Shown in pieces: positions 1 through 21,252 of a stretch of DNA of 57,735 nucleotides (position 1 is the stretch's first letter; every line of letters begins with the position of its first letter). Source of the stretch: Candidatus Brockarchaeota archaeon (GTDB lineage: Archaea; Thermoproteota; EX4484-205; JAAOZP01). A program made the translations under genes and the position numbers. The DNA lies in NCBI GenBank assembly GCA_017601395.1, contig JAFNIQ010000004.1, forward strand, positions 1 to 57,735, read 5' to 3'. Below the pieces are notes generated by a model, which worked only from the letters and a program-made list of their open reading frames with translations, made no database searches and was not told the origin of the DNA.

Positions 1-1
1 G

Positions 2-58: not shown

Positions 59-115
59 GATCCTGAAAAACCTTCAAAAACCTTTTTTTCTCTCTAATTT
101 TTTTCAAGGTCCACG

Positions 116-1911: not shown

Positions 1912-1917
1912 CGCGTC

Positions 1918-2616: not shown

Positions 2617-2632
2617 CCTGCTTAAGGGAAAG

Positions 2633-2808
2633 GTTAATATAGGCCTCCCTGTGCGCACACTGCTTAGGAGGTGCGCTGAGTGTACCATAGTATTCACGCT
2701 CCAAGGGGGCGGGACACCGTCCGCCAACTGCAGGAGTCCCTCTGCAAGCCAAGCCTCCGCTAGGGGAACAAGGGTTTTCGAAAGGCTTTTTGCCGGGGGT
2801 GTTGTAAA
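2633..2808 (+). promoter_or_regulatory. ilvB promoter plus long 5' leader with blocks shared with the leuA leader
   Basis: TATA GTTAATATAG lies at 2633-2642 and an 8-bp palindrome GTGCGCAC at 2651-2658. AGGAGGTG lies at 2666-2673 and the box CCAAGGGGGCGGGAC at 2701-2715. A local hairpin GGCGGGAC-ACC-GTCCGCC follows, and a second SD (GGGGGTG) precedes the ilvB ATG at 2809. Confidence 0.55.
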
Positions 2809-4482: not shown

Positions 4483-4489
4483 GGCACGA

Positions 4490-4978
4490 ATGGCTTCAGA
4501 TGGGAATAAGAGGTTCATCGTGCTCAGGGTTCTCAACATGCCCGGCGTGATGGAGAGAATATCATCAATATTCGCGAGGAGGGCGATAAACATTGACACG
4601 ATCACTGTAGGCATGGTTAACGGAAAGACCTCTGAGATATCGCTGACCTTCAGCCTGCCACAGGAGAAGTTTGAAAACATCGTGAAGGTTCTTGAGAAAA
4701 ACCCGTGCGTCTTCGAGGTTAAGACGGGTTCTCTGGAGTACGACGTGATAAGGGAGGCCTTCGTAGCCGTGCTGAAGGATTGCGACACGAGTGTGAGCGA
4801 CTATATTAGGGTCAGGTATAGGGCTAGGACAACCCTGCTCAGCGGCTCCAGGCTTCTAGTAGAGCTCCTAGCCGACCCTAGGACGGTTGACGATTTCAAG
4901 GAGGAGTTTAAAGACCGTATTGAAAGCTTCTCGAGGAGCGGCGTGATGATTCACACTCTGAACCGTTTCAGAAAGTAA
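4490..4978 (+). CDS. ilvN: acetolactate synthase small (regulatory) subunit, ACT domain
   Basis: 162 aa. N-terminal ACT-type motif FIVLRVLNMPGVMERISSIFARRAINIDTITVG. Lies immediately downstream of ilvB. Confidence 0.85.
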   Translation: MASDGNKRFIVLRVLNMPGVMERISSIFARRAINIDTITVGMVNGKTSEISLTFSLPQEKFENIVKVLEKNPCVFEVKTGSLEYDVIREAFVAVLKDCDTSVSDYIRVRYRARTTLLSGSRLLVELLADPRTVDDFKEEFKDRIESFSRSGVMIHTLNRFRK

Positions 4979-5023
4979 AAAGCTTAAAAGAAAACGCGGC
5001 CGTGGAGTAGGGGTGACTGAGGG

Positions 5024-6007
5024 ATGGCTAGGATAATAAGGGATGACGAGATAAGCATTGAGCTGATTAAGAATAAGACTGTAGCCGTAATAGGCTACGG
5101 CTCCCAGGGTGAGGCTCAGGCTAAGAACATTAGGGACAGCGGCGTTAAGACGATAATAGGCTTGAGAAGAGAAGGCGCATCGTGGAAAAAGGCTTCCGAG
5201 GATGGTTTCGAAGTCTACGAGATAGGCGAGGCCGTTAAGAGGAGCAGCATTATTCTCATGCTAATACCTGATCCTGCTCAGCCTGCTGTCTACAGGGATC
5301 ATGTTGAGCCGAATGTTTCAAAGGGTTCAACACTGGTTTTCGCGCATGCTTTCAACGTTCACTACAGGCAGATAGTTCCCTCCCCCTGGCTTGACGTTGT
5401 ACTCGTGGCTCCTAAGGCGCCAGGCCCCGCGTTAAGGGACGCGTATGTCCGCGGAACCGGGGTCCCCGGCTTGATAGCTGTCCACCAGGATTACACTGGT
5501 AATGCTTCGAGAACAGTCAGGGAGGTTGCTAAGGCTGTTGGGCTGAGTAGAATCGGCCTGATAGAGACCTCCTTCAAGGAGGAGGTTGAGACAGACCTTT
5601 TCGGCGAGCAGGCTGTTCTCTGCGGCGGGGTCTCGTCGCTCATTAAAAGCGGCTTCGAAATCCTTGTTGAAGCAGGATACCAGCCTGAGGTTGCGTACTT
5701 CGAGGTTTTAAACGAGCTGAAGCTTATCGTCGACCTCATCTGGTCTAAAGGCTTATCCGGCATGTGGCAGGCTGTCAGCGACACCGCTAAGTACGGCGGT
5801 CTTACGCGCGGCCCACTCCTTATAGACGAGGATGTTAAGAGGAAGATGAGGAAGCTTCTTGAAGACGTTCAGACAGGTGTTTTCGCAAGGGAGTGGATAC
5901 TGGAGAACAGTTCCAACCAGGTTGTTCTGAAGACTCTTGTCGAAAGGGAGAGAAACCACATGATAGAGACAGTTGGGAGGAAAATAAGGTCGATGGTGTA
6001 CGGTTGA
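5024..6007 (+). CDS. ilvC: ketol-acid reductoisomerase
   Basis: 327 aa class I KARI. NADPH site VAVIGYGSQGEAQAKNIRDSG and the conserved block FGEQAVLCGG. Confidence 0.93.
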   Translation: MARIIRDDEISIELIKNKTVAVIGYGSQGEAQAKNIRDSGVKTIIGLRREGASWKKASEDGFEVYEIGEAVKRSSIILMLIPDPAQPAVYRDHVEPNVSKGSTLVFAHAFNVHYRQIVPSPWLDVVLVAPKAPGPALRDAYVRGTGVPGLIAVHQDYTGNASRTVREVAKAVGLSRIGLIETSFKEEVETDLFGEQAVLCGGVSSLIKSGFEILVEAGYQPEVAYFEVLNELKLIVDLIWSKGLSGMWQAVSDTAKYGGLTRGPLLIDEDVKRKMRKLLEDVQTGVFAREWILENSSNQVVLKTLVERERNHMIETVGRKIRSMVYG

Positions 6008-6014
6008 GAAAGGC

Positions 6015-7649
6015 TTGATGAGGAGCGACGCTGTAAAGAAGGGTGTGGACAGGGCTCCGCACAGGGCTCTGCTCCACGCCCTAGGATTGAGAAACGAGGA
6101 TTTCGACAAGCCTTTCATAGGCGTAGTTAACTCCTACACTAACGTTGTGCCGGGGCATGTTCACCTCGACGTGATCGCGGAAAACGTTTCCAAGGGTGTT
6201 AGAGACGGAGGCGGAGTTCCCTTCGTCTTCAACACGATCGCCGTCTGCGACGGTATTGCTATGAACCATGATGGGATGAGGTTCTCGCTGCCTAGCAGGG
6301 AGGTTATCGCGGACACGGTTGAGATAATGGTTTCGGCACACATGTTCGACGCCCTGGTCTTCATATCCTCGTGCGACAAGATTGTCCCCGGCCACCTGCT
6401 GGCGGCGGCAAGGCTGAACCTTCCATCCATATTCGTCACAGGCGGCCCCATGTATCCGGGCGTGTTCAAGGGGAGGAGGGTGGACCTGGTTTCAGTCTTC
6501 GAGGCCCTGGGAGAGTACCGTGAGGGGAGGATTACGCTTGAGGAGCTGAGGGAGTTTGAACGGGTCGCCTGCCCGGGTGCCGGGAGCTGCGCCGGCCTGT
6601 TCACCGCGAACACTATGGCCTGCCTTGTTGAGGCAATGGGCCTGTCGCTCCCGGGCATGGCTGCTACTCACGCTGAGGACGAGGGTAAGAAGACTCTCGC
6701 ATACGAGTCAGGGAGGAGGATAGTTGGGCTCTGGAGGGAGGGCTTAAGGTTCAAGGATATTGTTAAGCCTGAAAGCGTCGTCAACGCGATAATTGTCGAC
6801 AATGCTCTAGGAGGCTCCACCAACACTGTTCTCCATCTGAGTGCTCTAGCCAAGGAGGCTGGCTACGAGCTTTCGCTGAAGGCTTTCGACGAGCTGAGCA
6901 GGAGGATACCTACGCTGGTTCTGATGAGGCCGTCTGGCGAAGGGCTCATGTTTGACTTTTACAACGCTGGCGGAGTCCCCTCGCTTATGAGAGTCCTTAG
7001 AAAACATCTTAACCTTGATGTTCTAACCGTTACTGGTAAAAGCCTCAGGCAGCTTGTTGAAGAGTTTCCTGATCCGAGGGGCACGTTCATACGTTCCCCG
7101 GATAACCCTTACAGGAGTGAAGGGGGCATAGCGGTGCTATGGGGATCCCTGGCGCCAGAGGGTGCTGTGATTAAGCTCGCCGGGACTCCTGTTCAGCTTA
7201 GAACGTTCAGAGGCAGGGCTAGGGTTTTCAACTCTGAGGAGGAGGCTGTTGAAGCTCTTGAGAAAGAGGATTTCACGGTGAACACCGTGGTTGTCGTGCG
7301 CTACGAGGGGCTTTTAGGCGGCCCAGGGATGCGTGAAATGCTCATGCCAACTTCGCTAATAGTTGGAAGGAAGCTTGTTGAAAGGGTTGCGCTTGTCACT
7401 GACGGAAGGTTCTCCGGCGGCACGAGCGGTATTGCGGTAGGCCATGTTTCTCCGGAGGCGTACACTGGCGGACCCATAGCGCTCGTGGAGGATGGCGACG
7501 AGATACTTGTAGACGTGCCGGGCAGGAGGCTTGACCTGCTCGTCAACAGTGATGATCTTGAAGAAAGGAGGCGGAAATGGGCTCCGCCGGCTAAGAAGCT
7601 TGAAAGCCGGTTTCTAGCTAAGCTGAGGGGAAACAGGTTTTTCACCTAG
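6015..7649 (+). CDS. ilvD: dihydroxy-acid dehydratase
   Basis: 544 aa IlvD/Edd family. Motifs CDGIAMNHDGMRFSLPSRE, CDKIVPG and TDGRFSGGT. Confidence 0.93.
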   Translation: MMRSDAVKKGVDRAPHRALLHALGLRNEDFDKPFIGVVNSYTNVVPGHVHLDVIAENVSKGVRDGGGVPFVFNTIAVCDGIAMNHDGMRFSLPSREVIADTVEIMVSAHMFDALVFISSCDKIVPGHLLAAARLNLPSIFVTGGPMYPGVFKGRRVDLVSVFEALGEYREGRITLEELREFERVACPGAGSCAGLFTANTMACLVEAMGLSLPGMAATHAEDEGKKTLAYESGRRIVGLWREGLRFKDIVKPESVVNAIIVDNALGGSTNTVLHLSALAKEAGYELSLKAFDELSRRIPTLVLMRPSGEGLMFDFYNAGGVPSLMRVLRKHLNLDVLTVTGKSLRQLVEEFPDPRGTFIRSPDNPYRSEGGIAVLWGSLAPEGAVIKLAGTPVQLRTFRGRARVFNSEEEAVEALEKEDFTVNTVVVVRYEGLLGGPGMREMLMPTSLIVGRKLVERVALVTDGRFSGGTSGIAVGHVSPEAYTGGPIALVEDGDEILVDVPGRRLDLLVNSDDLEERRRKWAPPAKKLESRFLAKLRGNRFFT

Positions 7650-7652
7650 CCG

Positions 7653-8669
7653 ATGTCTGCAGCATGCTCAAAGGGTTTTTCGGTTAAGCTTGACCGTTTC
7701 GCAACCATTCGCCTGAGAGAAGGGGAAAAGCTTCTGAAAATAGGCTCCGATGAGGCTTTGGACTATCTTTTCATATCTCACGCTCACTTCGACCACCTGG
7801 GTAAGTCTGAAGCTAGGAGAACACTGGCGGTATGCTCGGAGGAGACTCTTCTGCTCTCGACTCTAAGGGGGCTTGAAGTCAAGCGTGCCGAGCAGAATCC
7901 TTTCATTCTTCTGGACTCAGGCCATATTCTAGGGTCTAAAGCCCTGCTCGTGGAAACCGATATGGGTGGAATACTGTACACGGGGGACGTTAACACTTCA
8001 CCGGTTGAAAGCATACCTAGGCAACGCTTCCCGAGGGTTCACACGCTGATAATAGAGTCTAACTACGGTCGTCCCAGCCTGGTTTTCCCCCCGAGGAGAC
8101 AGCTGATAGGTGAGATTGTCGACTACGTGAGTGAAACAGTCAGGAAGGGAAGGCCAATGGTTCTAATGGGGTATCCGCTGGGCAAGTCTCAGCATGTTCA
8201 AATGGTTCTTGATCCTGTTCTCCAGGGTGTTGTTGAAACATATGTTTCACCATCAATAGCTGAGTATAACAATGTGTACAGGCTTTTCTCCGTGGGAATA
8301 GGGGGGAAGAAGGTTTTCACACCTCAGTCCACGGAGCTGCCGGACGGCTCCTGGGCTCTATACTATCCAAATGTCTCAGGCAGGAATGCTTTCATGCAGC
8401 TTGTCAAAAGAAAGTATGGGGCTGTCTTCATAAGCTTCTCAGGCAGGTCGCTTTTCAACTGGTACAGCGAGGCGCTGGGCGTGGACAAGGCTTTCCCGTT
8501 GAGCGACCATGCTGATTTCAACGGCCTGATGGAAATCGTTAGGGAAACAAGTCCGGAGAAGGTTTTCACAGTCCATGGTTTCCCAGAGGAGTTTTCCAGG
8601 GAGCTTAGGAGGCTCGGCTACGATTCTAAACCAATACGTCCAAGCATGGAGGCCAGCTTCAGGCTTTAG
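7653..8669 (+). CDS. MBL-fold hydrolase, short beta-CASP-like nuclease
   Basis: HxHxDH motif (ISHAHFDHLG) and C-terminal LSDHADF..VHG, as in beta-CASP motifs. 338 aa. Starts 3 nt after the ilvD stop. Confidence 0.7.
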   Translation: MSAACSKGFSVKLDRFATIRLREGEKLLKIGSDEALDYLFISHAHFDHLGKSEARRTLAVCSEETLLLSTLRGLEVKRAEQNPFILLDSGHILGSKALLVETDMGGILYTGDVNTSPVESIPRQRFPRVHTLIIESNYGRPSLVFPPRRQLIGEIVDYVSETVRKGRPMVLMGYPLGKSQHVQMVLDPVLQGVVETYVSPSIAEYNNVYRLFSVGIGGKKVFTPQSTELPDGSWALYYPNVSGRNAFMQLVKRKYGAVFISFSGRSLFNWYSEALGVDKAFPLSDHADFNGLMEIVRETSPEKVFTVHGFPEEFSRELRRLGYDSKPIRPSMEASFRL

Positions 8670-8677
8670 AGTCTTTT

Positions 8678-9802
8678 TCACAGCTTACGGGTGAAAACAA
8701 TATACTCGTCAGCATAGCCGATCTTAACAACCCGGTCCCTGGTTGCAACCCTCCTGTTAACCAGCCAGAGCCTCTCGGTTTCGAACCCAATCTCCTCAGC
8801 CATTTCAACGAATATTTTCTCTGTTTCAACAACGCCCGTCGGGAAAACTCCTTGAGCTATGACGAAAACACCCTTCCCGTTCTTTTTGAGAACACGGTGT
8901 AGCTCAGACAGAACCCGGCGTAGATCCTGAAAATAGGCTTCAACTATCGCAGGCATGTTCCCAATGTTTCCAGGACCCTCGGCGAGCCTAACCGCATCGC
9001 CTATGTATGAGCGCAGCATGGGTTCAGAGCCCTTGAAGAAAAGCTCGTTTTCAACGCTGTAAACCCTAGTGTACTCTATCTTGTTCAAATAAGGTGGTGA
9101 AGTGATGACTGCGTCGAACATCTCGTCCTCGAGGAACCCTAGGTTTCTCGAGTCAGCCTTGAAAGTCGCCACCTTAGGGTTAAGCATCCTTGTGGCTTCA
9201 ACATCCTTAATCATCCTCCTAATCCTGTTCCTGTAGAACTTTCTGAAAGGCGGGGCGCTCCTCTCCTTAACTATTCTAAGGAGGCCGCCGTCCTTCACCA
9301 CGTAGGATGCTTTCATGGCGGCGCTTATCAAGCCGAGTTTGAAGAAGCCTCTCGCAGCCTCGTCCTCAATGTTTTCAACGATCTCTCTGAAGAACAGCAC
9401 GTCCTCCAGAACATGCCTCGGAAAGGCTCTTCTAACAAGCCTGCTTAACCCACCTAGGCTGGGCCTCCTGAACTTTTCCGAGAAAACTTTTTCAGAAACC
9501 CTCCGGAGCTGCTCAACATCGTAGTTGGCAGTCTTAACCTTGGAGGCGAAAACAGGTAGCTCAGCCACGTCGACGCCGACACTGTTTATCCCAAGCTCCT
9601 TCCCTGTAAGCTGGGTTGTGCCGACGCCGCAGAACGGGTCCAGCACCCAGGAGTCTTCTCCAAGCCCGAGCTGCCTAGCCATAAGGACTACGAAGTCGCG
9701 GGAAAAAGCCTCCTTGTAATAGAACCAGTTGTGTATCGGAATATGCTTGTTAGGTATGAATGTGACAAGCCTCCCGAGTTCCAGCCTCTCTTCAACCATC
9801 AT
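8678..9802 (-). CDS. SAM-dependent amino-methyltransferase, probably DNA N4-cytosine/N6-adenine (SPPY motif)
   Basis: SAM motif I VLDPFCGVGTT and catalytic motif IV VITSPPY about 170 aa downstream. No recognisable restriction endonuclease lies next to it. Confidence 0.7.
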   Translation of the reverse strand: MMVEERLELGRLVTFIPNKHIPIHNWFYYKEAFSRDFVVLMARQLGLGEDSWVLDPFCGVGTTQLTGKELGINSVGVDVAELPVFASKVKTANYDVEQLRRVSEKVFSEKFRRPSLGGLSRLVRRAFPRHVLEDVLFFREIVENIEDEAARGFFKLGLISAAMKASYVVKDGGLLRIVKERSAPPFRKFYRNRIRRMIKDVEATRMLNPKVATFKADSRNLGFLEDEMFDAVITSPPYLNKIEYTRVYSVENELFFKGSEPMLRSYIGDAVRLAEGPGNIGNMPAIVEAYFQDLRRVLSELHRVLKKNGKGVFVIAQGVFPTGVVETEKIFVEMAEEIGFETERLWLVNRRVATRDRVVKIGYADEYIVFTRKL

Positions 9803-9936
9803 GACGGCTTTCCTTTAACCCTTGGTTGAACGATTGTTTCAAGCCGTTTTTAAGTTTTCCGAGGGGCTTTTCCGGAAGAGCCTTATGTAACCCTTATTAG
9901 CCGGTTTCCGCAGGTTCATCAGGTTTAGAGTTGCCC

Positions 9937-11463
9937 ATGGAGCATGATGTTGGTGGAGGCATATACCGGAGCAGGCTTGGGCCGGTTTCCTCAGAGGCCA
10001 CGAGATACGTGTCCAGCATCAGGGAAGACCTCTGGATACTCAGCGAGGATATTGAGTGCACGGTTGCGCATGACTTCATGCTTATGGAGCAGGGCTATAT
10101 TACTGAGGAGCAGCTTAAACGGATTCTCGAGGCTCTTAAAAGGCTTCGGGAAGAAGACTTGAGCCAGCTAGACCTTGAGAAGTATGAGGATGTTCATGAG
10201 CTGATAGAGTCTTATGTGGTTAAGCAGGCTGGGCTGGAGGTCGGAGGTCTTGTTCACACGGCGCGCTCCAGGAACGACCAGGTTGTCACGGCGGTGAGGC
10301 TTAAGACTCGAAGAGAGGTTTTAAGCATCATGGGGGAACTGCTTAAGCTTGAGGAGACTCTTCTAAGGAAGGCTAGGGAGACCGTTGACATAGTTTTCCC
10401 GTTCTACACTCATCTTCAGCAGGCTCAGGCCGCTCCCCTTTCACACTACTTCCTAGGTTATTTCGACATGTTTCTGCGCGACTTCAACCGTCTCTCAGAA
10501 TCGTTTAAAAGGGTTAACCAGAATCCGTTGGGGAGCGTTGCTATAGTCGGCTCCTCTCTTAAAATAGACAGGAGCCTAACTACGAGGCTACTAGGGTTCG
10601 ACGGGATTGTGGAGAACTCGTTCGACGCTGTCTCGTCACGGGACTTTGCGCTGGAGGTTGTTTCAAACCTTAACATTCTCATGCTTAACCTGAGCAGGAT
10701 TATGGAGGACCTGATTATCTGGCTTACCTCAGAGTATGGTTTCTTCACGCTTCCGGATGAGCTGGCGTTCCCGTCTAGCGCAATGCCTAATAAGAAGAAC
10801 CCGTGCATACTTGAGCTGACCCGTGCGAGGACGGGGAGGGTTTTCTCAAGCCTGGCCCAGCTTTCAATGGTTTGCAAGGCGGTGCCCAGCGGCTACGTTA
10901 GGGATCTTCAAGAGACTAAGCCTCCGTTGATCGAGGCGATTGAAACAACCAGGGAGGCCGTTAGGATCGTCAGGATTGTTCTCGAGAACCTCGAGGAGAA
11001 CCGTGAGAGAATAAGGTCTTTAACTGAGCCAAGCATTATCGCCCTGGACGTTGCTGAAAGAATAGTTGAGGAGGCCAGGGTTCCCTTCAGGCTTGCCCAC
11101 AGGCTGGTGGGGGAGATCGTGAAGCTCAGCGTTAAAACGGGTAAGAGGATGACTAGTCTTACCGAGGGCGATCTAAAGGAGATTTCCCTACACGTGTTGG
11201 GTAGAGATATTAGCAGTCTACTTGCAAGCATTCTGAGGGAAGCCGACACGCGTGTTCTCGTTTCGAAGCGCGTGTCACTGGGCGCGGGCTCGCCTGAGGC
11301 TGACGCGAAGATGCTTGCAGCCAGGGAGAAAACTTTACAGGAGTGTTCCTCCATGCTTAGCCTGATGGTTCAGAAGGACAGGGAGGCTAGGATGCTTCTC
11401 GAGGATTCCGTCAGCAGGCTTGTGAAGGGCTTTTTCTCCGCCGCCGCGGAAAAATGTCTTTAA
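9937..11463 (+). CDS. argH: argininosuccinate lyase
   Basis: Fumarate-lyase signature SSAMPNKKNP and HTARSRNDQV. The ORF track starts at TTG 9931; ATG 9937 is preferred here. Confidence 0.9.
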   Translation: MEHDVGGGIYRSRLGPVSSEATRYVSSIREDLWILSEDIECTVAHDFMLMEQGYITEEQLKRILEALKRLREEDLSQLDLEKYEDVHELIESYVVKQAGLEVGGLVHTARSRNDQVVTAVRLKTRREVLSIMGELLKLEETLLRKARETVDIVFPFYTHLQQAQAAPLSHYFLGYFDMFLRDFNRLSESFKRVNQNPLGSVAIVGSSLKIDRSLTTRLLGFDGIVENSFDAVSSRDFALEVVSNLNILMLNLSRIMEDLIIWLTSEYGFFTLPDELAFPSSAMPNKKNPCILELTRARTGRVFSSLAQLSMVCKAVPSGYVRDLQETKPPLIEAIETTREAVRIVRIVLENLEENRERIRSLTEPSIIALDVAERIVEEARVPFRLAHRLVGEIVKLSVKTGKRMTSLTEGDLKEISLHVLGRDISSLLASILREADTRVLVSKRVSLGAGSPEADAKMLAAREKTLQECSSMLSLMVQKDREARMLLEDSVSRLVKGFFSAAAEKCL

Positions 11464-11585
11464 GCAACTTCTAAGGCCTAGAAAACGTTTTCACTGCCTG
11501 TTAAACACTACGTTTTAGTTGTAAGCATTGTATACTAATGTAGAGATAAAGAATAAAAGTCACCCCGAGAGAATTCCTCTACGGG

Positions 11586-12149
11586 TTGCTAATTAGAAAA
11601 GACAAGATAATAGGCCTACAGGTTTACGATAAGAGAGGCCGGTACGTCGGCACCGTTAAGGACATAGGGTTCGTACTAGGCGAGAACCTTGTTGGAATAG
11701 TTGTTGTCGGTAGAGACAATAGGGAGATGGAGTTCATCTGGAGCGAGGTTGACGCTGCTGAAGACATCGTCATACTGAAGAAGGAGGTTACTGTTCCAGC
11801 GGCGCCCCCTGTGCCGGCGAAGCCTGCTGTCGAAGCCCGTGAGGAGCCGAAGGCCCAGCTTAGGGAGCAGGTTTCGGCGAAGCCACCTGTCTATGCGCCG
11901 AGGGAGCCGGAGGTTCAGGTTGCTCCCGCTAGCAGTGCAGCCGGGGTTCCTGAAGTGCAGCCTTCTTTCAAGGAGCCTGCTGAACCCGATGAGGCAGAAC
12001 TGGAGCAGGTTGAAACCGTAGCCGCTACGCCGCGGCCTGCTGCCGACGAAGCTGGTGGTGCAGGCACTAAAACCTGTCCGAAATGCGGAGCCATTAACAA
12101 CGCGCGCTACAAATTCTGCTTCAGGTGCGGAACCAGGCTGCCCGCTTAG
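11586..12149 (+). CDS. PRC-barrel domain protein with Pro/Ala/Glu-rich linker and C-terminal zinc ribbon
   Basis: The N-terminus IIGLQVYDKRGRYVGTVKDIGF is PRC-barrel-like. The middle is low-complexity. The C-terminus carries CPKCG..x..YKFCFRCG. Confidence 0.6.
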   Translation: MLIRKDKIIGLQVYDKRGRYVGTVKDIGFVLGENLVGIVVVGRDNREMEFIWSEVDAAEDIVILKKEVTVPAAPPVPAKPAVEAREEPKAQLREQVSAKPPVYAPREPEVQVAPASSAAGVPEVQPSFKEPAEPDEAELEQVETVAATPRPAADEAGGAGTKTCPKCGAINNARYKFCFRCGTRLPA

Positions 12150-12991
12150 CTTAAAGGTTCTTTAAGAACTATTCCGCGGCCCCTCTCTATTTCAAACCTG
12201 TAGATTATCGGGTTCACCGCGGTCCAGCGCATCTTCCTTATGAACATCGTTCTTATAATGGAGTTTCCAACCCTAGATATGGAGAGTATTATGACGCCGC
12301 TCGCCAGAAACTCTTCAACACCATACCTGCTCATCATGTTCTCCCCGGTGGGGACCTCCGATGTTATCACGGTGGTTACGCCGAGCTTCTCCTCGATCGA
12401 GAATATGAGGCTCCTGATGTATTCTCTAACCCATGCAACCTCGTTCGAGTAGGTGGTTACCAGCGGGGCTATGGGATCTATGACAAGCCTCTTAGCCCCT
12501 ATTTCCCTCCTCCTCTTGTCAAGCTCCTCTATTATGTTGTTGACTATAGCGTCCATCTCTCTTCCCCACATCTTGGAGGTGAAGTATCTTCTAACCGGTA
12601 GGATCGCGAGCTTCCTTGTCTCCACAAGGGGCTGAAGATCCCAGCCGAAGTTCCTCACGTCCCTCACAAGCATCTCCGGCCTCTCGTCTATCGTAACATA
12701 GATCCCAGGCTCGTTGTTCTTAGCCCCGTATAGGAGGTACTGCAGGCTGAAAATCGTCTTCCCGGTTCCAGCCTCTCCAGCGAGCAGGTATGTTTTACCT
12801 GATTCGAAACCGCCCTCCAGGATCTCGTCTATAGCCTGGTTGCCTGTTGAAACCCTTCTCACATAGGAGACTCCCTTCCGCGGGGTTCCGCAGGCTGGGC
12901 AGAACTTGTATTCGGGGCTGAGTGAATGTCCACACTGCTCGCAGGAGTAAGTGCCTACAGCCTCCCTTCTAACCGCCTCTCTCCGCTGCAA
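12146..12991 (-). CDS. KaiC/RadA-paralogue type RecA-superfamily ATPase with N-terminal zinc ribbon
   Basis: Zinc ribbon CEQCG..YKFCPACG followed by Walker A LLAGEAGTGKT, in a KaiC-like single-domain layout (281 aa). Confidence 0.7.
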   Translation of the reverse strand: MQRREAVRREAVGTYSCEQCGHSLSPEYKFCPACGTPRKGVSYVRRVSTGNQAIDEILEGGFESGKTYLLAGEAGTGKTIFSLQYLLYGAKNNEPGIYVTIDERPEMLVRDVRNFGWDLQPLVETRKLAILPVRRYFTSKMWGREMDAIVNNIIEELDKRRREIGAKRLVIDPIAPLVTTYSNEVAWVREYIRSLIFSIEEKLGVTTVITSEVPTGENMMSRYGVEEFLASGVIILSISRVGNSIIRTMFIRKMRWTAVNPIIYRFEIERGRGIVLKEPLS

Positions 12992-13053
12992 CAGTAATAG
13001 CTTTATGCGGAGCCGGTTTATAAATAGTTATCGGGCCAAGCCTTCCACTGGAT

Positions 13054-13551
13054 TTAACCGTTTTTCTTCAAAAAATAGTTTATTAAACCTCCCGCCTCTA
13101 TTATTTTCATGATGAATTCAGGCATTTTATCGCAGGAAAACTTCTCCCCAGTTTTGATAATCGTTAAAACCCCGTTGGCAACGTCAAGCTCAGCCTCATC
13201 CCCATCCTTAAGCCTGTCTAAACCCTCAGCCTCCCGGATGACAAGCGCTGGAAGACCCAGGTTTATAGAATTCCTGTAAAAGATTCTCGCGAAGGACTTG
13301 GCGACTACGGCTTTCACACCGGAGTGTTTCAAAGCTATTACCGCGTGCTCCCTGGAGCTCCCCAGCCCGAAATTCTCACCGGCAACTATTATTGCTCCAC
13401 CAGACGCCTTCACCCTGAATTCAGGATAATAGTCTTCGAAAACATGTTTTGCAAGAACCTCAGCATCATGAGTCACCAAGTATCTTGCAGGTATTATAAC
13501 GTCTGTGTCCACATTGTCGCCAAGCCTAATAATCCTGCCGCGTATTTTCAA
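13054..13551 (-). CDS. leuD: 3-isopropylmalate dehydratase small subunit
   Basis: 165 aa aconitase swivel domain ([13 protein letters not shown]). Overlaps leuC by 4 nt. Confidence 0.88.
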
Positions 13552-14813
13552 GCCAGAAGCCTCCTCGGGTCAGTTATTTTCCCCTCCACCGCTGACGCAG
13601 CCACCGTAGCTGGGGAGGCGAGGAATACTCTACTCTTCTTATCGCCCATCCTGCCTATAAAGTTCCTGTTGCTGCTTGAAACCGCAACCTCGCCTTCTGC
13701 AAGAACCCCTCTGGACATTCCTAGGCATGCGCCGCACGTGGGGCTCGTCACTATTCCACCGGCTCGCACAATCTCCTCAATGATTCCTGCTCTCAAAGCC
13801 TCCGTGTACACTTTAACTGAAGCTGGACTGACCACTAGCCTTACACCCGGCGCGATCCTTCTCCCCCTAAGTATCCTGAAGGCTACGTGAAGATCGTCAA
13901 ACCTCCCGTTCGTGCAGGAGCCTAGGAAAGCCTGGTCTATCTCAAGGCCTTCAACCTCTGCGACGGGCTTAACGTTGTCCACGCTGTGCGGCAGGCTTAC
14001 AACAGGCTCCAGGTTTGAAACATCCATCTCGATCTTCTCAAGGTCTGCGTCGTGGTCGCTTCTTACTTCCAGCAGCCCGCTGCATTTCCCATAGTGCTCA
14101 GCGTACTCAATGCTTTTAGAATCTGTTTGAACGATCCCGGTTTTAGCACCAGTCTCCACGGAGAGGTTTGCAAGAGTAAGGCGTTCAGACAGGGACATCA
14201 TTCTTACTGTTTCACCAGAGTACTCCAGAGCCTTGTAGGTTGCCCCATTGCTGCCGATTTTCCCGACGATGCTTAAAGCAACGTCTTTCGCGAAAACTCC
14301 TTTCCCAAGCCTACCGTTAATTTCGACCAGCAGTGTTTCAGGAACCCTCAGCCATATTTCTCCAGTCGCTAGTACGACAGCAGCATCAGTAGAGCCGACG
14401 CCTATTCCAATTGCGCCGGTCGCCCCAGCTGTGCAAGTATGGCTGTCCGCGCCGACTATCAGGAAGCCGGGCACGTCGAAGCCTTCTTCGAAGAGGACTT
14501 GGTGAGCTATGCCTCCCCTCCCTATTTCGAAGAAGTTTCTTACCCCGTGTTTTCTAACGAAGCTTCTCATCCTCCTCATCTGGCTGGCCAGCTCTATCGT
14601 GCTCGGGGGGACATCATGGTCGAAAACCACTATCACCCTGCTGGGATCCCAGAGTTTCCCAGAGATTTTTTCAAACTGTTCGACAGCCAGCGGCCCAGTC
14701 ACCTCGTGCAGCATTAGAAAATCCACCTTAGCCTCCACTATTTCACCCACTTCCACACGGGGCCTGCCTGTTTTCCTGGAAACCACTTTCTGAATTGCCG
14801 TTAAACCAGTCAT
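13548..14813 (-). CDS. leuC: 3-isopropylmalate dehydratase large subunit
   Basis: 421 aa aconitase-family catalytic domain (GADSHTCT, GSCTNGR, CGACLG). Overlaps leuA and leuD. Confidence 0.9.
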   Translation of the reverse strand: MTGLTAIQKVVSRKTGRPRVEVGEIVEAKVDFLMLHEVTGPLAVEQFEKISGKLWDPSRVIVVFDHDVPPSTIELASQMRRMRSFVRKHGVRNFFEIGRGGIAHQVLFEEGFDVPGFLIVGADSHTCTAGATGAIGIGVGSTDAAVVLATGEIWLRVPETLLVEINGRLGKGVFAKDVALSIVGKIGSNGATYKALEYSGETVRMMSLSERLTLANLSVETGAKTGIVQTDSKSIEYAEHYGKCSGLLEVRSDHDADLEKIEMDVSNLEPVVSLPHSVDNVKPVAEVEGLEIDQAFLGSCTNGRFDDLHVAFRILRGRRIAPGVRLVVSPASVKVYTEALRAGIIEEIVRAGGIVTSPTCGACLGMSRGVLAEGEVAVSSSNRNFIGRMGDKKSRVFLASPATVAASAVEGKITDPRRLLA

Positions 14814-16348
14814 CCGCCAGCCCTCTTCCTAATCTGCAGAAGCCTGTTGGCCCCATTCAGTATCGCGTAAACCCCTGCTAGCACAATGTCCTCGCTGAAT
14901 CCTTTCGCAGTCACGCTCCGCCCCTCATCGTCTGAAACCCTGACCGTGACCTCTGCAAGCGCTTCTGTGCCTCCCGTTATCGCCTCCAGCCTGAAGCTTT
15001 CAAGCTTTATCTTAACCAGGTCGCCGAGAAGCCTGCTGACCGCCTTCATCGAAGCATCTATCGGCCCGACTCCGAACTCAGCTCCCCTCCACGCCTGTTC
15101 CCCTCTCCTTATCTTTATTGTTGCCGTCGGCGTCGTGTTCAACCCTGTAACCACCAGAAGCTCTTCAAGCTCGATGCGGTCCTTCTCACCGACCCCGTAT
15201 CCTATAACGCTTTCAGCTATCGAGGCGAGTTCCGTGTCAGTAACCTTCTTACCCTTGTCACCAATATCCTTAACTATTTTAAGAACCTGTTTCAACTCCT
15301 CCTCGCTCAGCCTATATCCCATTTCCTCAAGCTGCGCTGAAATCCCGTGGACGCCGGCGTGCTTCCCAGCCACCAGCCTTCTCCGAGCCCCGACGAACCC
15401 TGGGTCTATCGGCTCATAAGTCTCTGGGGATGCTATTACGCCATGAGTATGGATCCCGCTCTCATGGGAGAAAGCGTTTTCCCCAACTATAGGCTTGTTC
15501 ACAGGTATTGCTATGCCGGTTATCAGGGAGACCAGCCTGCAGGTGTTGTATATCTCTTTAAACTTCAAGCCTGTTTCAACACCGTATAATACTTTCAGGG
15601 AAACCGCCACCTCCTCCAGGCTAGCGTTTCCAGCCCTCTCTCCAAGCCCGTTGACTGTTACATGCGCCTCAGCAGCCCCTCCCTCAATGCCTGCAAGCGT
15701 GTTCGCGACAGCTAGGCCCATGTCGTTGTGACAGTGTACCGCAACCGGGATCCTCAGGGCTTCACGAACCCTCTTAACAATCTCCCTCATGGCGAAGGGT
15801 GTTGCAACGCCAACAGTATCAGGAATATCAACTGTGCTTGCCCCAGCTTCTTCAACCCTCCTGTAAAACTCCACTAGGAAATCAATGCTCGTCCTAGTCG
15901 CGTCCTCGGCTGAAAACTCTATTTTCATACCGTAGGATTTAGCGAGGTCTATGGATTCAACCGCCCTGCGTACGGCTTCATCCCTGCTTATCTGCAGCTT
16001 CTTATTCAAATGTATGTCAGAGGTCGCTATGAAGAGATGTATTCTGCCTGCGCCGGTTGAAGCGGCCTTCTCAATATCCTCCTTTAGACATCTGGATAGG
16101 GCAGCGATCTCCGCGTTTAACCCTTCTTTAACTATCAGCCTAATAGCCTCCTCCTCGCCACGCGATGTCGCCGGGAAGCCTGCTTCTAATACGGGTACTC
16201 CAAGCGCGTCCAGCTGCCTCGCTATCTTAAGCTTGTCCTCAGGCGTAAGCGCGACCCCCGGAGTCTGCTCACCGTCCCTTAGAGTAGTGTCGAAAATAAC
16301 CACCCTGTCAGGTATTTTAGCCTCAGTAATATATCCTCTCCAAACCAT
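14810..16348 (-). CDS. leuA: 2-isopropylmalate synthase (with C-terminal LeuA regulatory domain)
   Basis: 512 aa. Motifs IFDTTLRDGEQTPG and HCHNDMGLAVANTLAG. The long C-terminal domain is typical of IPMS. Confidence 0.9.
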   Translation of the reverse strand: MVWRGYITEAKIPDRVVIFDTTLRDGEQTPGVALTPEDKLKIARQLDALGVPVLEAGFPATSRGEEEAIRLIVKEGLNAEIAALSRCLKEDIEKAASTGAGRIHLFIATSDIHLNKKLQISRDEAVRRAVESIDLAKSYGMKIEFSAEDATRTSIDFLVEFYRRVEEAGASTVDIPDTVGVATPFAMREIVKRVREALRIPVAVHCHNDMGLAVANTLAGIEGGAAEAHVTVNGLGERAGNASLEEVAVSLKVLYGVETGLKFKEIYNTCRLVSLITGIAIPVNKPIVGENAFSHESGIHTHGVIASPETYEPIDPGFVGARRRLVAGKHAGVHGISAQLEEMGYRLSEEELKQVLKIVKDIGDKGKKVTDTELASIAESVIGYGVGEKDRIELEELLVVTGLNTTPTATIKIRRGEQAWRGAEFGVGPIDASMKAVSRLLGDLVKIKLESFRLEAITGGTEALAEVTVRVSDDEGRSVTAKGFSEDIVLAGVYAILNGANRLLQIRKRAGG

Positions 16349-17485: not shown

Positions 17486-17525
17486 TTAAACTCTTAGGAA
17501 AAACACTAGAAGGTTATTATGTTTT

Positions 17526-17600
17526 TGCGGCGCCCGGGATTTGAACCCGGGATTCCCAGCTTGGAAGGCTGGTGTCCTAACCAGGCTAGACCAGCGCCGC
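17526..17600 (-). tRNA. tRNA-Gly (anticodon UCC)
   Basis: Reverse complement GCGGCGCTGGTCTAGCCTGGTTAGGACACCAGCCTTCCAAGCTGGGAATCCCGGGTTCAAATCCCGGGCGCCGCA. Anticodon stem CCAGC/GCTGG with loop CTTCCAA. Regular D and T arms. Confidence 0.92.
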
Positions 17601-17644
17601 GGGTACCGGAGTTAGAACAGGCTGGATGGTTAAAAGTTTTATCC
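17601..17644 (-). promoter_or_regulatory. tRNA-Gly promoter block, identical to 688..731
   Basis: The same 44 nt as upstream of tRNA-Gly(CCC). Identity stops exactly at 17644, where the cassette ORF stop codon begins. Confidence 0.6.
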
Positions 17645-18549
17645 TACTTTTTCCGTTCATCTATCATTCTTATCAGTTGAAGCTTCTCCATGTGCTCCGG
17701 CTTCCTAGAGCCTATTTCCTCTATGAATTTCAGGTGGTCCTCTGCAGGAATAGTAAAACTATGTAGATCGCGCCATCCTGGTTTCCTATGATCTGTGCGA
17801 ATCTCATGAGGATGAAATCCTAAGTCTATGAACATCTGTCTTACTTCTTCCAACCCCTCTTTGTATGTTGAGTAGATGCGAATACTATGAGCACGTTCTC
17901 CTGTCATGGAGATATTTCCGTCGCCAGAGAAGAAACCTCTTAAGTATGCCCTTTTCCCTTCTTCGTCTAAATGGGCTACAGGCGGATGAAATTCAAAGTC
18001 CTCTGGCCCCTTAATGCCCAGATTTGCTAAATCGTAAGCTATCTTCTTGCTATATATCCTTGGCTTATGGTAGGCTTTCTCTCCTTCTCCCGTGTCTTCA
18101 AAACGGATATAATCGCGGGCAGTTTCATGGTAGACCTCTCTAATTAAGTTAATGAAAAGTTCAGCGAGTTCCTTATCCTCACTATCGAAATAAACCTCAT
18201 ATACGCTTTTCTCACTATTAATGTAAATTCCACCGTCAGAGGCTATTAAACCGCATAACTCTGCCTTTTCTGGAGTAAGTATTTCCCTAACTTTTCCATC
18301 TAAAAATTCCAAACTCATTCCTTTACTCAGCTTAAAAACAATCCTGCCTCCTTCAACCTTGGCTTCAGAAAAGATTCCGATAACTTTACCTTCTTTAAGT
18401 AGTTCATATCCACCGCCTTCTGCTTCGCGAACCTCGTATCTCTCAAAGGTTCTTAAGACATGAAAGGACTCTTCTTCTCCTTTCCCTCGTACTTGCTCTC
18501 CCTCAAAGAATCTCCTTTCATACTGCTTAACCCTAGAGCCTCCGCCCAT
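17644..18549 (-). CDS. double-motif LAGLIDADG endonuclease-like protein with ~95-aa N-terminal extension
   Basis: Two LAGLIDADG motifs (LCGLIASDGGIY and YLRGFFSGDGNIS) about 110 aa apart. The C-terminal FIEEIGSRK..KL is typical of the family. The ATG directly abuts the stop of the upstream gene (TAAATG). Confidence 0.75.
   Translation of the reverse strand: MGGGSRVKQYERRFFEGEQVRGKGEEESFHVLRTFERYEVREAEGGGYELLKEGKVIGIFSEAKVEGGRIVFKLSKGMSLEFLDGKVREILTPEKAELCGLIASDGGIYINSEKSVYEVYFDSEDKELAELFINLIREVYHETARDYIRFEDTGEGEKAYHKPRIYSKKIAYDLANLGIKGPEDFEFHPPVAHLDEEGKRAYLRGFFSGDGNISMTGERAHSIRIYSTYKEGLEEVRQMFIDLGFHPHEIRTDHRKPGWRDLHSFTIPAEDHLKFIEEIGSRKPEHMEKLQLIRMIDERKK
17652..17704. repeat. left copy of the 53-bp direct repeat
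   Basis: TCCGTTCATCTATCATTCTTATCAGTTGAAGCTTCTCCATGTGCTCCGGCTTC, identical to 20558-20610. It encodes the C-terminal ..PEHMEKLQLIRMIDE of the LAGLIDADG ORF. Confidence 0.95.
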
Positions 18550-19647
18550 TTATCTTCCTCTCGTTAAAGCTCTATTCATGTCGAGCAGGTTGTGGAGAGC
18601 AAGTGTCTTGAGCCCCAGCTCCTTATCACTTAACATCAGATCGATCAATTCCTGTGGCATCATCCCTCTACATGCTTCGCAAGTACACTCCTCGAATCTG
18701 ATTTCCGGATCTTTGAAGTTGTACAATTTTCCTCCTTTAAAGTAATGTCCTTGTTTTGCTTCTAGAAACCAAGAAAGATTGCTGTAGCTACCTATCTCCC
18801 TGTACTTAAGCCTGCGGCCGATACCGTAGAGCAGCAATTCGAAATCCGTTCTAGTCCTCTTAGAAAACCACTTCAGGCTCATCAGGGCGCTGGGCAAAAG
18901 GTCACCCAGGAGATTGTCTTCGAAAAGCTCCCTCGCGGGCATCGCGAAGGAAACGTAGCCCATTTCAACCTGCTTCCTAATAGCCCAATCTATTTGAAGA
19001 TGGTTGGCGCCCTTGATTAAGCCGATTAACGGGATGTCAAGCTTGAGGAAGTCGTTTGCGAGGGAAACGAGCCTTACGGTTTGAGACCATGATAGAAAAA
19101 GTGGGTCATCCACGTAAGTATAGTTATCCGGAATCATTGTAGCATCCGGCCCAAGGTTTTTAACCAGCCTGAAATAATCCTTAAACCTAAGATTATCGAG
19201 AAGTTCGTCGGGCATCACTAATGAAAGGAAAATCCTTCCATTAAACCCTAGGAAGTCATGTAAGCCTTTTAAGGAAACTTCTTCAAGGAGGGTTTTGTCA
19301 ACCAAAAGCTGCCAAAGAGGAACAAATATTTCTGGCAATTCTACGCCATGTCTCCAGAACCATGACTTTTTATCACTAATATCGATTTGAGGGATGAATC
19401 TTTCGAAACCGATTTTGGTCATCAACTTTTTGCTTAATGAAGACATTTGCACAAAGGATCTATTCGCTGTTTTAATCGGGCAATAAGGCTGGAGTCTGCA
19501 GAAAGACTTGGGATAGGTTATTCCAGTATATTGGAAACCTCTCTGGCATTGTGCTACGAGGCACATTTTGAAAGAGCAACCGCGGCAGAGCTTATGAAAA
19601 TACGGACATTCCTCGCAATAAAAGCCGCACCATCCTTTTCTGGGCAA
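18550..19647 (-). CDS. tRNA-guanine-transglycosylase (TGT) superfamily protein, DpdA-like, with N-terminal Cys cluster
   Basis: The C-terminal CTCEAC-x25-H(NL) matches the TGT zinc site CxCxxC-x25-H exactly. It is preceded by SNLSWFLEAKQGHYF, resembling the TGT substrate-pocket strand. The N-terminus carries CGFYCEEC..C..C..C..C. Confidence 0.6.
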   Translation of the reverse strand: MPRKGWCGFYCEECPYFHKLCRGCSFKMCLVAQCQRGFQYTGITYPKSFCRLQPYCPIKTANRSFVQMSSLSKKLMTKIGFERFIPQIDISDKKSWFWRHGVELPEIFVPLWQLLVDKTLLEEVSLKGLHDFLGFNGRIFLSLVMPDELLDNLRFKDYFRLVKNLGPDATMIPDNYTYVDDPLFLSWSQTVRLVSLANDFLKLDIPLIGLIKGANHLQIDWAIRKQVEMGYVSFAMPARELFEDNLLGDLLPSALMSLKWFSKRTRTDFELLLYGIGRRLKYREIGSYSNLSWFLEAKQGHYFKGGKLYNFKDPEIRFEECTCEACRGMMPQELIDLMLSDKELGLKTLALHNLLDMNRALTRGR

Positions 19648-19770
19648 TGTGGCTTTAAAAATTGAGCTAGAATAAAAACTCTTTTCTTATGCCTCCGCTA
19701 ATAATTGAATAATTGTAATTAGATTAGTATCGGAGCATATAAATAGGTCCTAATTGAATAAAATCAGTGG

Positions 19771-20457
19771 ATGGACACAAGGAAGGGAGAGGGAAGGGAA
19801 CAGGGTGTTACTGTCTGGTATTGGGGTGAGGAATTCGAGGATGTCGGAAGGAATTGCGAGAAGTATGTTAGCAAAAGGTGGGATGAAAGCGTTAAAGAAT
19901 GTGGGGTGTGGATTCTGGCAAGAGAGAGAAGGGAGGGAATTATCTATACTGTCACTGCATTTGTAAGCAGTCCTAAAGGTATCGATAATCTGGCTCAGCA
20001 CCTATTTAACGTGACGCTCCTTCAGGGAAGTACTAAAGTGGATTTTGTTGTGGTTCAATTGACTAATTCCGTCTTCTCGGCCGGCATGCAGTATCGGGAT
20101 CCGATGGAAAAAGTGGAAAACGAATTGGAGGAACTGATGAAAAATATCGCTGAGAAGTTTGGCGAGGATCCTAGGGTTAGGGAAGTTATGAAAGGTAAAA
20201 AAGTAGTATTCATTCCAGAGATCTGCCTACTTTGCGAATTAGAATCCCATCAGGCCAGCAAGATACTTATCGAAGTTGTTCATCACTTTTTCTCGAATAT
20301 AAAAGGGTTTCTAGATTCTTTAACCAATAAGTTAATAAAGGAAGGTCTGGCAGAACGGATCTTGGGCTATAAGTTAAACGTAAGCGTTGAGAACCTTGAG
20401 ATCGAGGACGTGGAAGCTTGGGAGGATGAGGTTCACGTTTGGCTTGATCGGATATAA
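19771..20457 (+). CDS. hypothetical protein (228 aa); true start uncertain
   Basis: Long ORF divergent from the TGT-like gene across an AT-rich spacer. No motif recognised. The first ~55 codons lie in a purine-skewed G-run region where three ORFs overlap, so the start may be internal. Confidence 0.4.
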   Translation: MDTRKGEGREQGVTVWYWGEEFEDVGRNCEKYVSKRWDESVKECGVWILARERREGIIYTVTAFVSSPKGIDNLAQHLFNVTLLQGSTKVDFVVVQLTNSVFSAGMQYRDPMEKVENELEELMKNIAEKFGEDPRVREVMKGKKVVFIPEICLLCELESHQASKILIEVVHHFFSNIKGFLDSLTNKLIKEGLAERILGYKLNVSVENLEIEDVEAWEDEVHVWLDRI

Positions 20458-20557
20458 GAGCAATCTTTCAGTGTTTAAGACCTGAGATAATGAGGTAATA
20501 CCGCACTTTTAGTAGCCTACATTATTGAGAGGCCTAATAAGCGATTTGTGCTCCTTC

Positions 20558-20610
20558 TCCGTTCATCTATCATTCTTATCAGTTGAAGCTTCTCCATGTG
20601 CTCCGGCTTC
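20558..20610. repeat. right copy of the 53-bp direct repeat
   Basis: Identical to 17652-17704. Here it encodes the last 16 codons (EAGAHGEASTDKNDR) and stop of the methyltransferase, in a different frame from the left copy. Confidence 0.95.
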
Positions 20611-21252
20611 TCTGGTTCTCCTGTCCACTAGGCTGTAATTGTTCATCCCGTATTCTAGGGTAATCGCGTCTCTGAAGCCTGCCTTATTACACATCTTGCT
20701 AAAGGTTTTCCCGTCGATGAGGAAGTAGAATCTTCTATGCTGCCCCCAGTTTACCATGAAATAGTTCCCGCCGATCCTTCTAGCCCTGCGTAGAAACTTC
20801 CTATCCCTGGTCGTCTTTATCGACCATGAGGAGGCAAGCATCCATCCCTTGTCGCTCAGAACCCTTCTCATCTCTCTGAGAGCCTTCTCAGCATCATTCT
20901 CCCTCAAATGGTGTATTGCTGAAATACATATTATGCTGTCGAAAACCCTGTTCCTGAAAGGCAGGTGTGTTAACTCGTACTGCACATAGTGAACCTCTTT
21001 TCCAGAAGCGTTTTTCACGCATTGTTTAAGCATGTTTCTCGAAAAGTCTCCTGCAACCATAGTTCTGCCTCTAAGCGCTTTCAGGTTCCTACAGTTTCCG
21101 CAACCATTGTCAAGTGTTAAGCCGGCTTCCCTTGAAAAACCTCTGTCAACCAGTTTTTCAAGAAAGGGGTCTGGTCTAACCCTCGTCCTGTCAAACTCCT
21201 CGGATATGGTGTCGTAGAGCCTACGGACCTCCCCCCGGTAATCGCTGGTCAT
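20563..21252 (-). CDS. class I SAM-dependent methyltransferase, Trm9/ALKBH8-like (Methyltransf_11 type)
   Basis: LYDTISEEFDRTRVRP, LDNGCGNCRNL, FDSIICISAIHHL and MRRVLSDKGWMLASSWS follow the Trm9-type pattern. The subfamily assignment is tentative. Confidence 0.65.
   Translation of the reverse strand: MTSDYRGEVRRLYDTISEEFDRTRVRPDPFLEKLVDRGFSREAGLTLDNGCGNCRNLKALRGRTMVAGDFSRNMLKQCVKNASGKEVHYVQYELTHLPFRNRVFDSIICISAIHHLRENDAEKALREMRRVLSDKGWMLASSWSIKTTRDRKFLRRARRIGGNYFMVNWGQHRRFYFLIDGKTFSKMCNKAGFRDAITLEYGMNNYSLVDRRTREAGAHGEASTDKNDR

Follow-up and report, generated by a model that had tools for sequence, protein, structure and literature searches.

The window analysed here is a stretch of 57,735 nucleotides from a Candidatus Brockarchaeota archaeon (assembly GCA_017601395.1, contig JAFNIQ010000004.1, positions 1 to 57,735, read on the forward strand). 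Next to a tRNA-Gly gene it carries a cassette of three genes, A, B and C, which belongs to a family of such units of ~2.8-2.9 kb. Gene A, the largest of the three, encodes a protein that joins a Cys cluster to a barrel of the tRNA-guanine transglycosylase (TGT) type, gene B encodes a LAGLIDADG endonuclease, and gene C encodes a protein whose fold is unmatched. The cassette is a previously undescribed mobile DNA unit in hot-spring archaea (Brockarchaeota), and a search of the full-text literature found no description of either the TGT-like/LAGLIDADG cassette or the A family. In window coordinates, the cassette and its parts are the following (the L numbers used throughout denote loci fetched for comparison).

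17521 to 20460: transferred block with sharp edges, 86-90% identical in nucleotide sequence to L010 and L012, beyond which the flanks do not align
17526 to 17600, reverse strand: tRNA-Gly(TCC), called by ARAGORN and Rfam, abutting the cassette after gene B; its 3′ end coincides with the left boundary of that block
17644 to 18549, reverse strand: gene B, a double-motif LAGLIDADG endonuclease of 301 amino acids (Pfam LAGLIDADG_3, E 4.7e-16)
17649 to 17704: left copy of a 56-nucleotide direct repeat, at the 3′ end of gene B (copies 55/56 identical, spacing 2906)
18550 to 19647, reverse strand: gene A, 365 amino acids from a TTG start, Cys-cluster and TGT-fold protein, reading frame intact
18553 to 19410, reverse strand: barrel of A, residues ~80-365, TGT-type (β/α)8
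18592 to 18687, reverse strand: zinc site of A, residues 321-352, with invariant C321, C323, C326 and H352
19477 to 19647, reverse strand: N-terminal module of A, residues 1-57, with nine conserved Cys
19771 to 20457, forward strand: gene C, 228 amino acids, divergent from A
20555 to 20610: right copy of the direct repeat, and right-hand limit of the zone in which divergence from L011 exceeds that of the flanks

In the window, the start codon of gene B abuts the stop codon of gene A. The same arrangement recurs in essentially every locus with room for it: a LAGLIDADG gene of ~300 codons lies directly downstream of A, with stop and start codons abutting or overlapping. In the LAGLIDADG motif, the catalytic acidic residue is the Asp that precedes Gly; at least 80% of 27 B sequences conserve it in motif 1 and at least 95% in motif 2. 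Gene C is likewise present in essentially every cassette (~225 amino acids across the family); its usual place is after B and in the same direction, but the window and its orthologues have it upstream of A and divergently transcribed. The AlphaFold2 (AF2) model of C has a predicted local distance difference test score (pLDDT) of 92, yet the best matches in the PDB (E 0.25) and in BFVD (E 0.05) do not amount to a significant fold match. Pfam, NCBIfam and PADLOC returned nothing for C, PHROGs gave just a marginal match (E 0.023), and scattered low-probability matches to a HUH Rep domain were judged not significant. All three genes are under purifying selection, as seen in the ratio of non-synonymous to synonymous substitution rates (dN/dS): 0.09-0.11 for the whole of gene A, where selection is strong, 0.11-0.15 for B and 0.16-0.23 for C. 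A scan of species-representative genomes recovered 45 loci, with 3-6 diverged copies per Brockarchaeota metagenome-assembled genome (MAG). In about a dozen copies A, B or C is frameshifted or fragmented, although some of these frameshifts may be assembly errors, the sequence data being MAGs.

The history of the cassette differs from that of the chromosome around it. The block shared with L010 and L012, delimited by sliding identity, is found in genomes whose RadA is only 70% identical in amino-acid sequence to that of the window's host; between genomes this far apart, the cassette is 86-91% identical. Conversely, compared with the close relative L011 (RadA 98.8% identical), the flanks are 96-100% identical, whereas positions 17545-20612 reach only ~71-95%. 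The A protein is 86-87% identical to all four orthologues irrespective of host distance. The cassette evolves independently of the chromosome.

A second site in the window shows the other side of this mobility.

35860 to 36382, forward strand: empty site, made up of tRNA-Glu(CTC) at 35860-35934 and a spacer that departs from L020 over 428 bp (35955-36382)

The 3′ site of tRNA-Glu(CTC) is occupied in relatives: L020 has an intact ‘Leu’-clade cassette there, and L039 and L048 have decayed cassettes of another clade and in the opposite orientation; in all three loci, homology to the window's flank resumes at 36383/36384. Because the cassette of L020 differs from those of L039 and L048 in both clade and orientation, at least two independent entries have taken place at this one tRNA-Glu site. 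In the spacer of the window itself, neither profile searches nor blastn detected a cassette remnant, and the spacer is unlike any of the fetched loci.

Association with tRNA genes is general. In 24 of 35 non-redundant cassettes a tRNA gene lies within 250 bp of a cassette end, against a background of one per 34 kb in the same loci (binomial P 4e-36; tRNAs were called with ARAGORN and, for intron-containing tRNAs that it missed, with Rfam). In the typical arrangement, either the tRNA has its 3′ end facing C, only a few bases from that gene's stop codon, or it is found just upstream of A. The clades of A track the type of tRNA and span isoacceptors with a common 3′ half (Leu TAA/TAG/CAG; Ala variants). 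Direct repeats of 27-135 nucleotides, spaced 2.65-2.94 kb apart, flank 14 of the 35 cassettes. In L014-L017 (the tRNA-Leu group), L029, L035 and L036, it is the neighbouring tRNA whose 3′ part is repeated, in some cases together with a short trailer; these repeats cover the 3′ 23-64 nucleotides of the tRNA. Elsewhere the repeat is a piece of the element: the tail of B in the window, L009 and L011, the 5′ part of A in L033 and L047, and a segment upstream of A in L031. We consider it very probable that this is a mobile cassette residing at tRNA genes in Brockarchaeota.

An earlier note on this DNA had assigned the product of gene A to the TGT superfamily, and at the level of the fold this is borne out by profile searches, the AF2 model and Foldseek. 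A profile of the A family matches the archaeal TGT (ArcTGT) structure 1IQ8 in the PDB with E 2.5e-7 over residues 105-363, and hhalign against an alignment of four archaeal ArcTGTs yields 98% probability and E 2.4e-13. The AF2 model of A (pLDDT 82.9, predicted template modelling score 0.82) is confident from residue 70 to 365, with pLDDT >85 in the barrel, and Foldseek matches it to 1iq8 with E 4.7e-12; among the PDB matches listed, 50 of 50 are TGT or ArcTGT. Single-sequence searches give far less: A alone matches ArcTGT in the PDB weakly (E 0.15), Pfam PF01702 (TGT) scores 23.2 bits, under its gathering cut-off of 26.3, and covers residues 297-361 only, and NCBIfam TIGR00432 (ArcTGT) reaches 11.5 bits against a cut-off of 350. 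Similar sub-threshold Pfam TGT matches occur in 29 of 30 family members. Every one of 125 close homologues of A comes from Brockarchaeota-type MAGs, and none carries a protein name.

The zinc signature CxCxxC-x25-H, on which the note had built, is real, and all four ligands are invariant in 30 homologues. The exact x25 spacing, however, is not a family constant: in several members an 8-residue deletion shortens the linker, so that CxCxxC...H alone is meaningful. In both HMMER and hhalign alignments, the ligands of A fall onto the zinc site of ArcTGT (C279/C281/C284/H307, numbered by counting along the alignment). The segment SNLSWFLEAKQG, taken in the note for a TGT strand region, is homologous to β8/α8 of TGT, but the catalytic Asp found there in TGT is a Ser in A. 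The absence of a PUA domain was also seen correctly, as the 365 residues stop just past the zinc site, without the C-terminal ArcTGT domains C1-C3. By sequence profile as well as by structure, ArcTGT (1IQ8) and bacterial TGT (PF01702) are the best matches of A. They share with it the (β/α)8 barrel, the CxCxxC...H zinc subdomain, the guanine-recognising Asp (D130 in ArcTGT, D174 in A) and an S-aromatic-x3-A-K helix after strand 8. At ~16-19% identity, however, A lacks the nucleophile D249 (S289 in A), the DSGxFQ motif and the C1-C3/PUA portion, and unlike these enzymes it has an extra nine-Cys N-terminal module and is encoded in a mobile cassette.

The seven Cys that the earlier note had counted in 28 residues of the N terminus are confirmed at residues 7-34 (C7, C11, C14, C21, C24, C29 and C34), and C50 and C56 are two further ones absent from its list. 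All nine are conserved among 30 aligned homologues, whose identity goes as low as 42%. The automatic gene call for the contig (P0001, 290 amino acids) begins at an internal Met, whereby the Cys module is lost. Since an orthologue carries ATG at the position of the window's TTG start and codons 2-75 evolve with a dN/dS of ~0.2, the 365-residue long form appears better supported than the 290-residue call. Annotators should be aware that automatic gene calls often clip the Cys-rich N terminus of A-type proteins. No Pfam family matched the module even at E ≤ 10 when eight such N-terminal modules were scanned; a suspected likeness to DUF3795 found no support in the same scans. AF2 assigns the region a pLDDT of 40-53 and thus does not model it, and a profile search with the module alone returned just five short, fragment-like open reading frames (ORFs). 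The CX3CX2C spacing had been compared with radical-SAM/FeS-type sites, a comparison that we could not uphold: neither the whole protein nor the module matches Radical_SAM or another such family (E ≤ 10), and CX3CX2C sits outside the barrel, ~70 residues ahead of it. The module most likely binds metal, as Fe-S or Zn.

To assess the active site of A, residue statistics were taken from 30 close homologues and from 93 distant representatives. Across both families, TGT and DpdA, three Asp of the active site are stated to be invariant, and the DpdA mutants D95A (acid/base) and D256A (nucleophile) have lost all activity (PMC10164549). The base-recognising Asp is kept in A: D174 aligns with D130 of ArcTGT (Zm D156, DpdA D130), and 92 of the 93 distant representatives have Asp at this position. 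The nucleophile position, in contrast (Zm D280, Ph D249 in FDSAS, DpdA D256), aligns to S289 with both HMMER and hhalign and is S, A, I, V or C, never acidic, in the 30 close and 93 distant relatives. The DSGxFQ motif, including the base-stacking aromatic residue, is missing from A in HMMER and hhalign alignments with ArcTGT. The family has a conserved set of its own, in which D147 is Asp in 89 of the 93 distant representatives, Y178 is found in 90 and an acidic residue occupies position 240 in 83; for K212 the count is 68. Conserved as they are, D147, D174, Y178 and E or D240 speak for catalytic activity or a precise ligand pocket rather than for a dead protein. A is a genuine relative of TGT with altered catalytic residues. 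Because the covalent nucleophile Asp is missing, base exchange of the TGT/DpdA type is not expected, and A is probably not a canonical transglycosylase. The TGT barrels of ArcS and of eukaryotic QTRT2 have kept zinc site and pocket while transglycosylase catalysis was changed or lost; unlike A, they belong to tRNA modification pathways, carry other added domains and have neither a nuclease partner nor a mobile context.

These data also bear on a proposal that follows from the earlier note, which had called A closest in concept to DpdA. Here, A would be a DpdA-like transglycosylase that adds 7-deazaguanine to DNA or tRNA and thereby protects the occupied tRNA-gene site from B, like the modification half of a restriction-modification system. 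DpdA, known from the Dpd system and from phages (PMC10164549), is, like A, a short single-domain TGT fold without PUA and with a link to nucleases and genetic conflict, and action on DNA is plausible for A. A retains the TGT fold, the zinc site and the Asp that recognises guanine, the strongly conserved acidic constellation suggests catalysis, and duplicated target segments would need protection. A canonical ArcTGT is encoded separately in the host lineage (L012, Pfam TGT 7e-78, in an ORF cut by the locus end), so that preQ0 is probably available, and 7-deazaguanines protect DNA from nucleases according to PMC6884629. DpdA, however, keeps all three catalytic Asp, including the nucleophile that is essential to it and never acidic in the 123 relatives of A, and it requires the ParB-like ATPase DpdB. 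The cassette offers no such partner and no deazaguanine synthesis genes; nor is there a dpd gene cluster beside A, whose cassette neighbours are the LAGLIDADG gene and gene C only. DSGxFQ and its base-stacking aromatic are absent, Pfam TGT stays below its gathering cut-off, and we regard a DpdA-like role as unlikely. An ArcTGT in L051 (Nanobdellati) was recognised in our scans by TGT, TGT_C2 and PUA matches. Recurrence of A in viruses, raised in the note, was not found: IMG/VR yielded no relatives of A and PHROGs gave nothing for it, and a viral origin of A was accordingly rejected. The same holds for membership in a known defence system, for which PADLOC gave no significant match (marginal TGT, E 0.027; HEase, E 0.0022).

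On balance, we lean slightly towards a composite reading, in which the cassette is a selfish three-gene element that homes into tRNA genes and A is a partner of the nuclease B. LAGLIDADG-driven homing with tRNA-derived arms, as a mechanism in its own right, falls just short of an even chance in our estimation. B would cut tRNA genes (or resident cassette remnants) without the element, and repair of the break from an occupied allele would copy the cassette in. The duplicated tRNA 3′ segments at the cassette ends would then serve as travelling homology arms, and such arms would account for hops between isoacceptors, for transfer between distant genomes and for the variable end points of the repeats. 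The pattern of intact, decayed and empty alleles fits the cycle of invasion, decay and loss of homing endonuclease genes. As for A, its TGT ancestry, the kept guanine pocket, the translational coupling to B and the existence of metallophosphoesterase-fused relatives suggest a nucleic-acid-recognising partner of B. Most likely, A would bind or flip a purine, either within the DNA of a tRNA gene or within a nucleic acid shaped like a tRNA, and it may assist B by choosing targets, by removing bases hydrolytically or by protecting the occupied site. More tentatively, and with greater doubt than we attach to homing itself, we propose an integrase-free element in which a repurposed TGT-fold and metal-cluster protein recognises the tRNA gene or the nascent tRNA and licenses, or protects against, the LAGLIDADG nuclease, with help from the third protein.

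Several observations weigh against this picture. One site has cassettes in both orientations, something that would not be expected from simple homing. Repeats are detectable in only 14 of the 35 copies, and several of them, the window's own included, derive from the element and not from a tRNA. Where they are tRNA-derived, they resemble the att sites of ordinary integrases, so that mobilisation in trans is possible. Moreover, a cut site inside the duplicated tRNA segment would leave occupied sites cleavable unless they are protected. Circular or junction forms were not found among the ~2.8-kb cassette-bearing metagenome contigs, which are ordinary fragments without terminal overlap. Concerning A, its role is deduced from fold and neighbours alone, and the acid/base position (Zm D102, Ph D95, DpdA D95) depends on the alignment: HMMER places S142 there with a 4-residue gap, hhalign D147 of ‘MPDE’.

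Free-standing homing endonuclease genes are among the known systems closest to the cassette. Phage T4 SegB is a free-standing homing endonuclease gene in a tRNA gene cluster, a case of ‘intronless homing’. SegB is mentioned in PMC13096335. With free-standing homing endonuclease genes the cassette shares a nuclease outside any intron or intein and beside conserved tRNA genes, the coexistence of intact, decayed and empty alleles, and host-independent spread. It differs from elements such as SegB in that a LAGLIDADG gene in an archaeal chromosome is accompanied by two constant companion genes and is often bounded by tRNA 3′ duplications.

Instead of homing, the cassette might be a mobile defence module, in which A would detect modified or flipped bases of foreign DNA, such as viral DNA with 7-deazaguanine, by means of a pocket derived from TGT but no longer capable of base exchange, and would license B, the paralogues providing different specificities. 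A pocket that is kept while the nucleophile is lost would suit a sensor. A-type domains also pair with different nucleases (the LAGLIDADG operon, a metallophosphoesterase fusion and, by eye, a PD-(D/E)xK-like neighbour), and several diverged paralogues per genome together with frequent loss are typical of defence genes. Such a module would nevertheless leave the abutment to tRNA 3′ ends and the tRNA-derived repeats unexplained; its neighbours are housekeeping genes and not defence islands, the PADLOC matches are those marginal ones already given, and LAGLIDADG enzymes are typically sequence-specific homing nucleases. We judge a defence function to be improbable.

A similarly low probability attaches to the idea that A, B and C are passengers of a miniature island, moved in trans by a conventional tRNA-targeting integrase of a virus, a plasmid or the chromosome, with functions of their own that have nothing to do with integration. 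Archaeal elements with tyrosine integrases, of the SSV and pTN3 types, insert at the 3′ part of a tRNA gene, which is then found as a direct repeat at either end of the element. The tRNA-derived repeats of the cassettes, 23-64 nucleotides of the tRNA 3′ end, have this classic att form, and the cassette encodes no recombinase of its own: A, B and C, the only genes between the repeats, match no tyrosine or serine recombinase family. Unlike SSV- and pTN3-type elements, however, the cassette is only 2.8 kb long and its repeats vary in length and end points. Some of these are even internal to the element (tail of B, 5′ part of A, upstream of A), as would fit homology-driven events. The cassette encodes, furthermore, its own homing-type nuclease with conserved catalytic residues, and no integrase is called beside the cassettes in the gene and Pfam tables of the eight loci L001-L008, the remaining loci not having been screened for integrases.

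That A is a housekeeping tRNA-modifying enzyme, a specialised ArcTGT paralogue placed beside tRNA genes for regulation, might be suggested by its fold, by the tRNA adjacency and by housekeeping genes nearby (RNase P Rpr2, RadA and aminoacyl-tRNA synthetases among them), but it is highly improbable given the missing nucleophile Asp, the canonical ArcTGT elsewhere and a history independent of the chromosome, and it is largely refuted by presence, absence and decay at one site and by the many pseudogenised copies.

Homing into tRNA genes with A as partner of B is the reading that we favour. Within a known superfamily, A represents a new branch with re-tooled catalysis, and the cassette adds a new variant to the mobile elements associated with homing endonucleases and tRNA genes. 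The branch comprises 272 cluster representatives at E ≤ 1e-3. In this unnamed group of the TGT superfamily the guanine pocket is kept, the covalent nucleophile is replaced and the domain is repeatedly joined to nucleases, which seems to point to chemistry or binding on DNA other than tRNA base exchange or modification of the DpdA type. The cassette is a compact, three-gene element that targets tRNA genes without a recognisable recombinase in a poorly known archaeal phylum; should targets truly be recognised by the TGT-fold protein, the element would be of a new kind. Its clear occupied, decayed and empty alleles make homing directly testable. If the pair of LAGLIDADG and TGT-fold proteins were to read tRNA genes programmably or by structure, it would be of practical interest.

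Some further features of the window adjoin the cassette or its tRNA gene. A second glycine tRNA, tRNA-Gly(CCC) at 614-687, is 94.7% identical over 75 nucleotides to tRNA-Gly(TCC) at 17526-17600, and the cassette lies beside the TCC gene only. The right repeat copy supplies an ORF for a class I methyltransferase (20563-21252, reverse strand) with its last ~16 codons and stop, in another frame; because the repeat, a duplicate of the tail of gene B, provides this end, the C terminus of the methyltransferase is probably a by-product of cassette rearrangement. The G+C content is 0.51-0.55 in positions 1-16000 and 0.43-0.49 in 16001-57735, with the lowest value (0.43) in the cassette region. At window position 24462/24463, L011 contains ~960 bp (4244-5204) that are absent from the window and include a small ORF (4807-5124) resembling only the Cys-rich N terminus of A. 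This insert may be the remnant of another cassette. A 91-residue protein from a Brockarchaeota MAG, P0274, resembles the same ORF.

Intron-containing tRNAs often adjoin cassettes in other loci (L024 12690-12781, L025 12683-12772, L029 2845-2934, L017 3875-3986). Near-identical tRNA-Ala-like genes are given differing identities (Val, Ala, Ser) by ARAGORN or are missed by it, and archaeal-aware calling is needed for them. L029, a contig of 2950 bp (JBMFNR010000018.1) with a complete cassette and an archaeal-type tRNA, is binned as the bacterium Fervidobacterium; this placement is probably a binning error and not a bacterial occurrence.

Among the wider relatives of A, a 620-residue paralogue in L001 (5666-7528, reverse strand), divergently transcribed, fuses the Cys cluster and TGT-like module to a C-terminal metallophosphoesterase, and similar fusions of 530-620 residues are P0143, P0147 and P0151. 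Its neighbour in L001 (3395-5662, reverse strand; 755 residues) has an acidic, low-complexity N-terminal half and, by eye only, a C-terminal PD-(D/E)xK-like motif (GPDFEV...VVEVKT). Distant relatives of ~305 residues without the N-terminal Cys module are encoded in operons of small uncharacterised genes in L057 (4517-8764), L058 and L055/L056. Of these proteins, P0164 has no clear zinc site and P0166 keeps cysteines there, and one has a ThiF/E1-like protein directly upstream; the operons may represent another nucleic-acid or base-modification system. Finally, two members of the A family match Pfam DUF4417 weakly (3.8e-4), which we keep as a lead only. According to 10.1101/2025.10.10.680097, DUF4417 often occurs in phages as a fusion with ParB-like NTPase folds; this recalls the pairing of DpdA with DpdB, and the domain may be another TGT-like barrel.

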